64,000 nt of DNA, taken from Candidatus Latescibacterota bacterium. GTDB taxonomy: Bacteria; Latescibacterota; UBA2968. Below are positions 10,744-62,007 of the stretch, piece after piece. The translations under genes were made by a program, and so were the position numbers. Below the pieces are notes generated by a model. It saw only the letters and a list, made by a program, of their open reading frames with translations, was not told where the DNA came from and made no database searches. Location: assembly GCA_965204745.1 (NCBI GenBank), contig OZ242010.1:1792001-1856000 (forward strand). The letters run 5' to 3'. Position 1 is the stretch's first letter. The number at the start of each line of letters is the position of its first letter.

Positions 10744-10784
10744 GGGTAAAAAAAAATACTCCCCTCCCCGAATCGGGAAGGGGG

Positions 10785-12152
10785 TAAGTAACAGTTCGCT
10801 ATAATCGTATCGTATCGTATAAAATCGTATATTATCGAGCGAAAGCAGTTGGTGTTGAAGATTGGATAGGTCAATGGTTAAGACGCACAAAAATGCACTG
10901 AAGCCGAATAAAGCCCAGGCGACGCGGTTGTCAAAGCACTGTGGCTATGCTCGTGTTGCGTATAATCACGCCCTCAATGCGTTCAAACACGCCCTGGATA
11001 TGGGCGTGTTTAAGTCGGTCTATACGCTCAAGCGGGAGTTCAATGCGGTCAAGTATGCCGAGTATGAATGGTCTGTCGAGTTGTCGCAGAACGCATCAAA
11101 GAACGCCATTCACGATTTGGACTTTGCCATCAAGAGGTGGCAAGACAAGAAATCGCCAGCGAGGTTTCCAAAACACCGCAAGCGGTCTGGTAAGCGTGCG
11201 TACCAAGCCGATAATGGGCCCGGTACGGTCAAGGTGGACGGCAAAAAGGTCTATCTCCCCAAAATTGGTTGGGTCAAGATGGCTGAGCGTCTGCGCTTTC
11301 CCGGCGAGATTGTCAAAGCCACGGTGACAAAGACGCATGGCCGCTGGTTTGTTTGTCTATCTGTCGATACTGGCGAGGCTGTGCCCGATAAGCGGTCTGG
11401 TGAACCCATCGGCATTGACATGGGCATCAAGACGCTGGCAACCTATTCGGACGGCACAACGATAGACAATCCAAAAGGATCAATTGATACGCAGTATCGG
11501 AAGTTGCGCCGAGTAGATAAAGCCATCGCACGCTCAAAGCATGTGCATGGCAAGAACCAACGCAGTAATCGCAGGCAACGCTTGTATGACCAACGCCAGC
11601 GCATCTACGGACGCATCACAACCATTCGCAACGATGTTCATCACAAAGCCACTTCCGCTTTGGTCAAAGTGACGACCGTTGGCAAGGTGATTGTCGAAAC
11701 GCTGAATGTCGCCGGTATGCGCCGCAACAAAAGCCTGTCGCGTGCGTTCCACCGCGCCGGCATCGCAGGCTTCTTGCGTATGTTGGCGTATAAGTGCGAA
11801 TGGTCTGGCGTGGCCTTTGAGAAAGCCGACAGGTGGTTTGCCAGCACGAAGACATGCTCTGGCTGTGGACAGCGCAAGGTTGCGATGGATTTGTCAGAGC
11901 GTGAGTATGTCTGCTTGTCCTGCGGACTAGTTCTTGACCGCGATTTGAACGCGGCAAGAAATCTTGCACAATACGACGCGGCAAGCCCTGCCGAGTCGAT
12001 AAACGGATGTGGAGGAACGATAAGACGGACACGAGGTTGTAAGCGCGTGGACGCACGCCCAAAGAAGCGTCAATCGAATCAACTGTCATTGGCTTTTGTG
12101 TAGCATGCGATAGTATGCGATAAAGTCGATTTCATACAATTTGAAGGAGCGG
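10785..12152 (+). mobile_element. IS607-like element, tnpB only (E1)
   Basis: left end GG|TAAGTAACAGT followed by ATCGTAT repeats; right end with ATGCGATA repeats ending TTTGAAGGAGCGG; no TIR/TSD; no tnpA. Confidence 0.8.
10874..12103 (+). CDS. tnpB: RNA-guided endonuclease TnpB
   Basis: N-terminal HTH; RuvC triad GIDMG / IVETL / DRDLNAA; CSGC..CLSC zinc finger. Confidence 0.95.
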   Translation: MVKTHKNALKPNKAQATRLSKHCGYARVAYNHALNAFKHALDMGVFKSVYTLKREFNAVKYAEYEWSVELSQNASKNAIHDLDFAIKRWQDKKSPARFPKHRKRSGKRAYQADNGPGTVKVDGKKVYLPKIGWVKMAERLRFPGEIVKATVTKTHGRWFVCLSVDTGEAVPDKRSGEPIGIDMGIKTLATYSDGTTIDNPKGSIDTQYRKLRRVDKAIARSKHVHGKNQRSNRRQRLYDQRQRIYGRITTIRNDVHHKATSALVKVTTVGKVIVETLNVAGMRRNKSLSRAFHRAGIAGFLRMLAYKCEWSGVAFEKADRWFASTKTCSGCGQRKVAMDLSEREYVCLSCGLVLDRDLNAARNLAQYDAASPAESINGCGGTIRRTRGCKRVDARPKKRQSNQLSLAFV

Positions 12153-12172
12153 CATATTTCGTTACTCTGCCA
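11977..12172 (+). ncRNA. predicted omegaRNA of E1 (scaffold overlaps the tnpB 3' end; guide is the flank)
   Basis: position at the right end is typical of TnpB; scaffold is conserved with 61220-61377 (reverse complement); boundaries approximate. Confidence 0.75.
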
Positions 12173-60374: not shown

Positions 60375-61154
60375 TCACTCCGGTTCGAGGACGCCGCGAT
60401 CCATTTCGTACCAGAACACGTCGCCGGATTCAATGCTGTCCTGAACCCGGTTGTCTCGATGCACCCCGGATACCGCGGCATAGGCGCGTTTGTCCGTGAA
60501 CCGCGTCAAGAACTCGGCGTTGCGAATGGCCCTGGTCGTATCCCTTCCGTTGACTGTGAATGAAATTTCCACGGCGATGTAGCAGGTTTCGCCCGCTTGG
60601 TCTGTGGCCTCCATAACTAGGTCGGCCCTTCGGAAACTTCTCAGTTCGTTTGTGGGAATGCCAGAGGTATCAGCGGAATCGATCAGATCCCAGAGGTCTT
60701 CACGCAAGAGGGTTTTCGTCCGCCGCATGCCCATCTCTCGGGCGATGAGCGTCGCATCTTCAATAGCGGCATTGCTGGCGAGAATGCCTTTGACCTCTCC
60801 CAGACTGGCCTCGATTCTGTTGAACCGCTTGTCCGTGGCTTCAACATGGTGGTCGAATCGCTGCTCGAGATGGTCAAATCGTTGCTCGAGTTTGTCGAAC
60901 CGCTGCTCAAGATGGTCAAATCGTTGCTCGAGTTTGTCGAACCGCTGCTCGAGATGATCAAATCGCTTATTGGTGGCTTCGACAAATTTGTTCATCTCCG
61001 CGACGAATTTGTTCATCTCGGTGGCGAACTGCGTAAATTTTTCGGGCAATTCGATCAATTCGCTGGACAGTAGCCGAACGCGCAAGGCTTCGGCCCACTC
61101 GGGTTTTTCGTCCAACAACTGTATCAAATCCTCGATGGTGTCAATGGTGTGCAT
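60375..61154 (-). CDS. heptad-repeat coiled-coil protein with C-terminal PD-(D/E)XK-like domain
   Basis: (FDHLEQR/FDKLEQR)n; ADLVME...YIAVEIS; GAGGAGG RBS. Confidence 0.8.
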   Translation of the reverse strand: MHTIDTIEDLIQLLDEKPEWAEALRVRLLSSELIELPEKFTQFATEMNKFVAEMNKFVEATNKRFDHLEQRFDKLEQRFDHLEQRFDKLEQRFDHLEQRFDHHVEATDKRFNRIEASLGEVKGILASNAAIEDATLIAREMGMRRTKTLLREDLWDLIDSADTSGIPTNELRSFRRADLVMEATDQAGETCYIAVEISFTVNGRDTTRAIRNAEFLTRFTDKRAYAAVSGVHRDNRVQDSIESGDVFWYEMDRGVLEPE

Positions 61155-61190: not shown

Positions 61191-61219
61191 AAAGTATCCA
61201 ACTCTGCTTCTAAAGTCAA
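61191..61219 (-). promoter_or_regulatory. possible sigma70 promoter abutting the E2 right end
   Basis: TTGACT-N17-TACTTT upstream of the 61154 ATG. Confidence 0.5.
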
Positions 61220-61377
61220 CCGCTCCTTCAAATCGTAACATCTTGTAACATCTTGTCACAAATCGCACAATTTGAATAGACGCTTCATCGGGTCAGCGTC
61301 CAAGCACATACAACCTCTTGTCCGTCTTACAACACCTCCACATCCGTTTTTTACTTGCTCGGTCAAGCTAGCCGCGC
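61200..61377 (-). ncRNA. predicted stand-alone omegaRNA
   Basis: colinear blocks shared with E1: AAACGGATGTGGAGG, TAAGACGGACA, GAGGTTGTA, TGGACGC, GAAGCGTC; boundaries approximate. Confidence 0.75.
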
Positions 61378-61706
61378 AAGTGATAGTTGGTTGTTACCAT
61401 CATTCCTTTGGATTTTACACTGGCAGGAGATTTTAGGTCTGTCGCTTGGTTATCGCTGTCACAGACGTGCCTTTGCCAGCAACCACATATCCCGCTTCAC
61501 TTGTCAAAGAACAAGAACAACAAAAAATCCGCCGATGGTTGATTCCAAAGCAAGGCTTTGCCACCGGCGGAATGAGACAGATACAAAAATGGCCTTGCTT
61601 TTGGAATCACACCTTAGATGACCGCAAACCGCAAAGGGTTTCACCTTTTTGTGCGATTTGTGATGATTTGTTGCGATTTGTTGCGATTTTCGCACACTGT
61701 TAAAAA
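61220..61706 (-). mobile_element. protein-less IS607-like element (E2)
   Basis: left end GG|TTTTTAACAGT with AAATCGCAAC 10-bp repeats; right end ATTTGAAGGAGCGG identical to E1; 15-bp perfect subterminal IR (61256-70 / 61649-63). Confidence 0.85.
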
Positions 61707-62007
61707 CCCCTTTGCTTCAATTAGTAGCTAGTGCCCATACATCTCGCCTTTGAACGGGCTGTCGCCAGTTGTACCTCGCTCGTGTTTTTTGAGGCTCATT
61801 CGCTTTTTGTATTTCTTTCGACAGGCACAGGGGCCTAGCCCTACGGTTGATGGAAGCAGGGTGGCCTTCTCCCTCCTTGTATCTTGGCAGTCAGCACATA
61901 CATTGCCTTGGGGTGGAAGGGTGGGGGCTGACCACTGACCACTGACTACTGACCACTGACCACTGTCTCTTCCCTCTCCCTTCTTACGTCTTGCTTCCCG
62001 CTTCTCC

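Follow-up and report, generated by a model that had tools for sequence, protein, structure and literature searches.

Altae-Tran et al. reportedly described standalone omegaRNA loci of OMEGA systems in 2021. The described systems that come closest to the locus analysed here are summarised from the passages of three papers that deal with guide RNAs supplied in trans. Standalone omegaRNAs are mobilised without an effector and a transposase, they occur in genomes that also hold effector loci, and their action in trans has been shown (PNAS, PMC10691335). PATE elements often encode omegaRNAs, which need the TnpB of other IS copies in trans (Meers et al. 2023, PMC10055086), and an IS607 TnpB was found to be equally active when its omegaRNA was provided in trans, using a TGGG TAM and a GG core (Zedaveinyte et al., 10.1101/2023.11.20.567912).

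The gene-less element described here, E2, belongs to an already published kind, since standalone and PATE omegaRNAs that act in trans are in print. Like the standalone omegaRNAs, E2 is mobilised without effector and transposase, the effector loci are in the same genome, and each copy has a guide derived from its own flank. It differs from them in its IS607-type ends, with a GG core and subterminal direct repeats, in having TnpB as the presumed effector, and in an extra 107-nt covarying 5′ domain of its RNA, and its function in trans is a prediction from our analysis. The PATEs of Geobacillus stearothermophilus (IS200/IS605) are, like E2, minimal elements that keep both ends and the guide RNA and obtain TnpA and TnpB from elsewhere, but they have palindromic hairpin ends and a Y1 (HUH) transposase that works on single-stranded DNA, whereas E2 has no such ends and its relatives carry a serine recombinase. 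With the IS607 tnpA(Ser)-tnpB elements and mini-CboIStron, E2 shares the GG core, a right-end omegaRNA, and a TAM rich in G, which is TGGG in the published system and RGGG(G) in the present one. However, mini-CboIStron is engineered, whereas E2 is a natural gene-less element without a group I intron, and the TnpBs are presumably only distantly related. E2 also resembles classical MITEs in being short, non-coding, multi-copy, and mobilised in trans, but because it lacks terminal inverted repeats (TIRs) and, judging from the junction sequences, a target-site duplication, it falls outside the strict definition of a MITE. A literature search for MITEs combined with TnpB in trans gave nothing specific, and the RAGATH-18 paper does not mention standalone, orphan, or in-trans forms. 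What characterises E2 within this kind are the IS607-type ends, a separate RNA lineage with an added covarying 5′ domain, the use of one cassette with three sets of ends, and the two-to-one excess of gene-less over tnpB copies.

E2 is a gene-less derivative of a tnpB element

The window, i.e. the whole stretch of 64,000 nucleotides that was analysed (G000:C1:1792001-1856000), is part of a single-contig genome of 5.48 Mb. It holds E2 and, on the opposite strand, a tnpB-only element of the same family, E1. Their features are listed below, where R1 stands for a covariance model of the 105-nt omegaRNA core; R2, used further on, is a model of the 5′ module.

61220..61706, minus strand: E2, whole gene-less element, 487 bp, left end from 61706 and right end to 61220 (ends aligned to E1, and boundaries of the empty site in genome G008)
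61707..61710, minus strand: GGGG flank adjoining the left end of E2, a TAM-like or target motif that includes the GG shared with the right-end terminus
61645..61706, minus strand: left end of E2, TTTTTAACAGT and then AAATCGCAAC-type subterminal repeats with a 10-bp period (from sequence and alignments)
61521..61609, minus strand: leader of E2, a long covarying hairpin (61609-61540) and then a helix CCGCCGGTGG/CCATCGGCGG with a U-run, terminator-like
61489..61520, minus strand: conserved junction box of E2, TTGTTCTTGTTCTTTGACAAGTGAAGCGGGAT (TTGTTC..TTTGACAAGTGAAGCGGGAT), a candidate promoter or processing site
61382..61488, minus strand: 5′ structured RNA module of E2, specific to gene-less copies, with nested CUGGCA/UGCCAG and GUCUGU/ACAGAC helices and a small hairpin
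61278..61382, minus strand: omegaRNA core of E2, homologous to the tnpB 3′ end and downstream scaffold, with an in-frame TnpB C-terminal remnant at 61375-61280 (124.5 bits with model R1)
61220..61277, minus strand: right end of E2, subterminal GTGCGATTT and GTTACAAGAT repeats and terminal ATTTGAAGGAGCGG
61198..61219, minus strand: predicted guide of E2, TTGACTTTAGAAGCAGAGTTGG, flanking DNA that would form the 3′ end of the omegaRNA, assigned by position and from TnpB biology
10785..12152, plus strand: E1, tnpB-only element of the same family as E2, 1368 bp, with the TnpB ORF at 10862-12103 and its ATG at 10874

The 413-aa ORF of E1 is intact, it matches the Pfam families OrfB_IS605, Cas12f1-like_TNB, and HTH_OrfB_IS605, and the motifs IGIDMG, VIVETLN, and DRDLNAA are visible by eye in its product. 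When E1 (11960-12170, plus strand) was aligned pairwise with the reverse complement of 61195-61400, the block-by-block match reported in the initial annotation was recovered (AAACGGATGTGGAGG, TAAGACGGACA.GAGGTTGTA, TGGACGC, and GAAGCGTC). The terminal 14-mer ATTTGAAGGAGCGG is indeed common to both elements, and the likeness ends exactly at ...GCGG^ (61220 and 12152; here and below, ^ marks the junction between element and flank). The left ends were also alike as described, reading GGGG^TTTT-TAACAGT in E2 and GGGGG^TAAG-TAACAGT in E1, and in E2 this start is followed by the 10-bp-period repeats. This likeness between the ends of E1 and E2 is far beyond chance.

The part of E2 that can be aligned to E1 comprises only its 3′ ~165 nt, and a different structured module is found further upstream. 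Positions 61220-61382 match the 3′ end of the E1 ORF together with the right end, which is the position that the omegaRNA has when it is linked to tnpB. The list of open reading frames contains short frames only, and no protein gene, between the ends of E2. The earlier reading that E2 has no recognisable remnant of tnpB has to be corrected, since a tblastn search with the E1 TnpB matched 61375-61280 (residues 373-403, 62.5% identity, E 2.6e-4). Such a C-terminal remnant is to be expected, given that tnpB and the omegaRNA share sequence at the 3′ end of the gene. Rfam includes a RAGATH-18 model for IS607 guide RNAs, and none of the six loci searched, which cover E1, E2, and four other copies, gave an Rfam match at E <= 1. 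Taken as a whole, E2 is a discrete unit derived from an IS607-type tnpB element; it encodes no protein, is non-autonomous, and has kept both ends.

Two short, very high-copy repeats lie beside E2 (61724-61811 and 61900-61987), which include runs of the heptamer GACCACT. Their summed contig depth is in the hundreds to thousands in four metagenome runs, and they give many short BLAST matches across the genomes of the genus.

IS607-type ends and resident transposases

Subterminal repeats are a defining feature of IS607 elements. As read from the sequence, E2 carries such repeats in place of hairpin ends or TIRs, of the AAATCGCAAC type with a 10-bp period on the left, and of the GTTACAAGAT type on the right. 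A GG is present at both junctions, and no target-site duplication is visible in the junction sequences. In the nearest relative, locus L025 has the left end GGGG^TTTTAACAGT followed by ATAATCGTAT repeats, then comes a serine tnpA, and then a tnpB that is 70% identical to that of E1. The match to the tnpA of the relative, for which the query was located by PF00239, consists of two separate pieces in L025 and is partial only in L027. Since the left-end type of E2 thus bounds an element with a serine tnpA and tnpB, and since GG is found at both junctions, the original assignment of E2 to the IS607 type holds.

A search of the genome for the Y1 transposase of IS200/IS605 elements gave 0 matches to PF01797. 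E2 itself has no tnpA in cis, and no intact transposase with the end type of E2 was found in its own genome, where all six resident serine tnpA genes, three of them without internal stops, are in elements with different ends. These six genes belong to another IS607 family, in which a serine tnpA is followed by a divergent tnpB (genome positions 210494, 3134478, 2876228, 1989429, 4364223, and 4119935; L019-L024), and those without stops are at 2876228, 1989429, and 4364223.

The insertion site of E2

An empty allele, predicted in the initial annotation, was found in G008, a genome of the same genus. It reads ...AAAGTCAA-CCCC-TTG..., which on the strand of E2 is CAAGGGG^TTGACTTT, or CAAGGGG^TTGACTTTAGAAGC when extended, and an empty-site junction would read ...AAGGGG^TTGACTTTAG... 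on this strand. Conservation of the left flank of E2 in G008 extends as far as the boundary, and the guide region is conserved beside the GGGG of the empty site. The site is GGGG^TTGAC, with no bases duplicated when it is occupied, and E2 is missing from the orthologous site of the nearest relative. E2 is a discrete insertion at a GGGG^TTGAC site.

The public runs that contain the E2 stretch are sponge or marine metagenomes, with no RNA run among those listed. The right-end junction (61220) is bridged by contigs from four runs, which belong to four studies, and one bridges the left-end junction. A joint that skips 61220-61706 was not seen among the metagenome contigs, which cannot exclude one.

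Both E1 and a gene-less copy at 3.848 Mb (type C, see below) are inserted right after a palindromic REP-like motif, CCCC..CGAATCGGG(G), which is located at 10757-10784 for E1 and at genome ~3848520-3848535 for the type C copy. G-runs of this sort may be preferred insertion targets.

Twelve copies carry the omegaRNA core

Model R1 found exactly 12 core matches in the 5.48-Mb genome, with E values from 1e-30 to 6e-25 and none further up to E = 1, and BLAST agrees with this number. Four of the 12 core-bearing copies (genome 1.803, 5.320, 4.231, and 3.903 Mb) contain an intact 413-aa tnpB, and in these four resident TnpBs RuvC-type motifs (IGIDMG, VIVETLN, and (D/N)RDLNAA) can be seen by eye. The other eight are gene-less and each has a different flank, so that E2 is multi-copy, and single-copy status, which the initial annotation had named as a refutation of its reading, does not apply. 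The eight gene-less copies fall into three types:

Type A: E2 and the copies at 1.356 Mb and 3.401 Mb (A_3401), 487-505 bp
Type B: the copy at 4.339 Mb (485 bp) and a left-truncated copy at 5.275 Mb (B_5275)
Type C: the copies at 3.056, 3.848, and 5.434 Mb, 341-342 bp, 98% identical among themselves

Whole-element identity between these types is 53-80%, and E2 and the 1.356-Mb copy, which occupy different loci, are 90% identical. The three type C copies, 98% identical at different sites, indicate that a gene-less element has moved recently. B_5275 (genome 5275076-5275335, locus L008) has an intact right end but no left end, leader, or junction box. It is a truncated copy, whose sequence sets in within the 5′ module, immediately behind an upstream gene. 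The junction box is kept in six of the eight gene-less copies, being missing from B_5275 and poorly conserved in A_3401.

The right ends of all 12 members end in (A/G)GAGCGG and stop at GCGG, after which unrelated, genome-unique flanks follow. The guides of the 12 copies have no second genomic match beyond chance-level matches of 14-19 nt. All 10 left-end flanks that could be extracted have ..GGG(G)^ before the left end.

The core sequences of seven of the eight gene-less copies are 85-99% identical to each other, and the core of the 1.356-Mb copy shares 74-80% identity with these seven. Among the four resident tnpB elements, core identity is 85-98%, but between them and the gene-less copies it is only 60-74%. 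The gene-less cores form a lineage of their own, apart from the cores of the resident tnpB elements. The ends show other affinities. Over its first 189 bases, the type A left end shares 86% identity with that of the tnpB element at 4.231 Mb (F_4231), whose right end also resembles that of type A by eye, and the type B right end resembles the right ends of E1 and of the tnpB element at 3.903 Mb. For the type C ends no tnpB-bearing counterpart was found within the genome, and by eye the right end of this type (..ATCAACAAGAAAGGAGCGG) is similar to that of the six-copy, tnpA-bearing IS607 family (..GGTCAACAGAAAGGTATCAG).

In a sample of 151 genomes from the phylum, the family was present in four of the 19 other genomes of the genus. 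The core matches without tnpB that were found there are either 5′-truncated tnpB genes that keep the right end (L120 in G040 and L122 in G029) or short fragments (L124 in G029 and L114 in G008), and all four are without the 5′ module. The closest relatives of the TnpBs are 70-72% identical and come from the record of an uncultured Latescibacteria bacterium.

The RNA module shows compensatory base changes

From left to right, E2 consists of the subterminal repeats, the leader, the box, the 107-nt 5′ module, the 105-nt core, and the right-end repeats. The RNA module of the gene-less copies is ~270 nt long and contains the 105-nt omegaRNA core and the 107-nt 5′ domain. The consensus fold of the eight gene-less copies has 49 pairs, in which 97.4% of the cells are paired and 15 pairs are changed on both sides, on the understanding that the fold was derived from the same sequences that were scored and that the copies amount to about four independent lineages. 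Each of six slid controls gave 0-1 double-changed pairs, and none of 500 column shuffles reached the observed covariation score.

Examined separately, the core has double changes in 7 of 23 pairs when all 12 copies are compared, and the 5′ module in 8 of 20. Thus, CUGGCA/UGCCAG is replaced by CUGAUA/UAUCAG, UCUGU/ACAGA by UCUGC/GCAGA or CUUAC/GUAAG, and CAAG/CUUG by CACG/CGUG in the tnpB-linked copies. In the 1.356-Mb copy this last hairpin is swapped as a whole, from CAAG/CUUG to CUGAC/GUCAG, and a codon reading shows that the former TnpB peptide has been rewritten while the helix was kept. The compensatory changes that the initial annotation had called for are therefore present in the scaffold. 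Since the module covaries strongly, with 15 of 49 pairs doubly changed against 0-1 in the slid controls, its suggestion that the RNA is under selection and not simply decaying is borne out. The covarying helices are mostly outside the terminal repeats that a transposase would bind.

We also considered a hidden antisense gene, as stop-to-stop frames of 90-149 codons are present in six of the eight copies. These were rejected because the frame shifts or is interrupted by stops between types A, B, and C.

A simple sigma-70 scan did not detect a promoter upstream of the RNA module of E2 or at the junction box. Its matches were at 61259-61232 in the right end, the sole one on the strand of E2, and at 61501-61528 on the opposite strand. 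By the rule of the promoter and terminator scan there is no terminator, and the hairpin and U-run of the leader were recognised by eye and from the fold.

The 5′ module and the leader

Model R2 matched the eight gene-less copies of this genome only, and it gave 0 matches when 20 further genomes of the genus were searched. To trace the origin of the 5′ module, the four whole tnpB elements and the 3′ ends of five relatives were searched with nhmmer (--max, E <= 10), without a match, and RNAalifold, applied to nine full-length copies, did not reveal a structure like that of the 5′ module in the region upstream of the tnpB-linked core. Exact-pattern scans returned 0 matches for the motif of the 5′ module in genome contigs and 0 for the core motif in metagenome contigs (own-genome records were possibly excluded there). 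Because the presumed scaffold lacks homology to the matching tnpB region in its 5′ half, the full omegaRNA of the initial description is a putative one.

In the leader, 7 of 37 pairs show compensatory changes in an alignment fold of five copies. A leader of the E2 type also precedes tnpB both in F_4231 and in another tnpB family, the second one noted here, and it is possible that it represents a shared cis-regulatory leader for tnpB and omegaRNA expression. In this second family, which has IS605-like hairpin ends, the leader hairpin and U-run are located directly 5′ of the RBS and ATG (genome 4479790-4479960 and 2052560-2052700, plus strand). The leader also occurs in a ~530-bp gene-less element of the family with IS605-like ends (genome ~482960-483480, minus strand), together with a TTCTTTGACAAG box that is similar to the junction box of E2. 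When the leaders of E2 and the second tnpB family are compared, the loop sequence is conserved and the stem covaries.

Possible roles of the gene-less copies

The explanation that we favour, and hold to be probable, is that E2 is an active guide-RNA element that depends on proteins supplied in trans. E2 would be transcribed from the minus strand, through leader, 5′ module, core, and right end into the flank, and its RNA would be bound by a TnpB that one of the full elements supplies in trans. These elements encode four intact TnpBs of the family, which are candidate effectors for the E2 RNA, and the F_4231 and F_3902 types are closest to E2 in core sequence. As the gene-less cores are only 60-74% identical to the RNAs that belong to these proteins, the resident TnpBs may not accept them. 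The ribonucleoprotein would then cut the GGG(G)-preceded empty site left by excision, which for E2 would be the target GGGG-TTGACTTTAGAAGCAGAG, and recombinational repair from the sister chromosome would restore the element, resulting in homing or retention. Mobility of E2 would need a serine TnpA in trans.

More tentatively, the gene-less copies may form an independent, self-propagating lineage of guides only, in which a cassette of box, 5′ domain, and core has been refitted with at least three sets of ends, and which would make them hyperparasites of TnpA and TnpB. In that case, the 5′ domain might have been acquired for expression, stability, or processing independent of TnpB. Gene-less copies outnumber the nuclease genes two to one, and one of the sets of ends, for which the genome has no version with tnpB, is similar to the right end of another IS607 family that carries tnpA.

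It seems rather unlikely that E2 and its relatives are dead, immobile, and unexpressed relics in which the conserved blocks persist because the copies are young or because a transposase binds the right end. Such an origin would fit the failure to find an intact cognate transposase in the genome, the decay products that make up the tnpB-less matches in other genomes of the genus (the truncated L120 and L122, and the fragments L124 and L114), and the loss of the left end in B_5275. The copies are, however, not mutually young, as the types share only 53-80% identity, yet pairing is kept in 97.4% of the helix cells, with double substitutions in 15 of 49 pairs, and a role of transposase binding is difficult to reconcile with covarying helices that are mostly outside the terminal repeats. 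The three nearly identical type C copies at different sites also argue against immobility, since they indicate recent gene-less movement. The strongly covarying 5′ module, which occurs in the gene-less copies only and is without a counterpart in tnpB elements, could be taken to mean that E2 has lost its role for TnpB and is a mobile non-coding RNA that hitch-hikes on IS607 ends, either as an sRNA or as a leader on the gene at 60375-61154. The low identity of the core to resident tnpB elements, and the position of E2 65 bp upstream of this gene on the same strand, agree with this. We regard such a role as improbable, as the tnpB-scaffold blocks and the guide-abutting terminal ...GAAGGAGCGG are kept in 12 of 12 copies, the eight gene-less copies are in unrelated contexts with unique flanks and no second genomic target, and no Rfam family was matched.

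The guide region of E2 overlaps the upstream region of the neighbouring gene, which brings to mind a host-domesticated, TldR-like guide with which a TnpB-family protein represses or marks the adjacent promoter, and exaptations of TnpB of this kind have been published (PMC10705468). Domestication would nevertheless be very surprising in this case, given that all four TnpBs are intact at 413 aa with RuvC-type motifs visible by eye, that the element has intact ends, is mobile, and occurs in several copies, that it is absent from the orthologous site in the nearest relative, and that the guides match their own flanks only.

Implications

The 12 aligned scaffolds, together with their covariation, provide a map of the helices that this clade of IS607-type TnpBs allows to vary. 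As a module for expression or stability, the 5′ domain is a well-delimited candidate. Should the RNA prove inactive, what has been described is a well-documented IS607 miniature family in a sponge-associated member of the Latescibacteria group. If it is active, the guide genes that one TnpB family serves in trans would be double the number of those it serves in cis, and guide-RNA cassettes would be able to evolve and spread alone, swapping transposon ends. This would bear on how an arrangement with one effector and many guides can originate from transposons.
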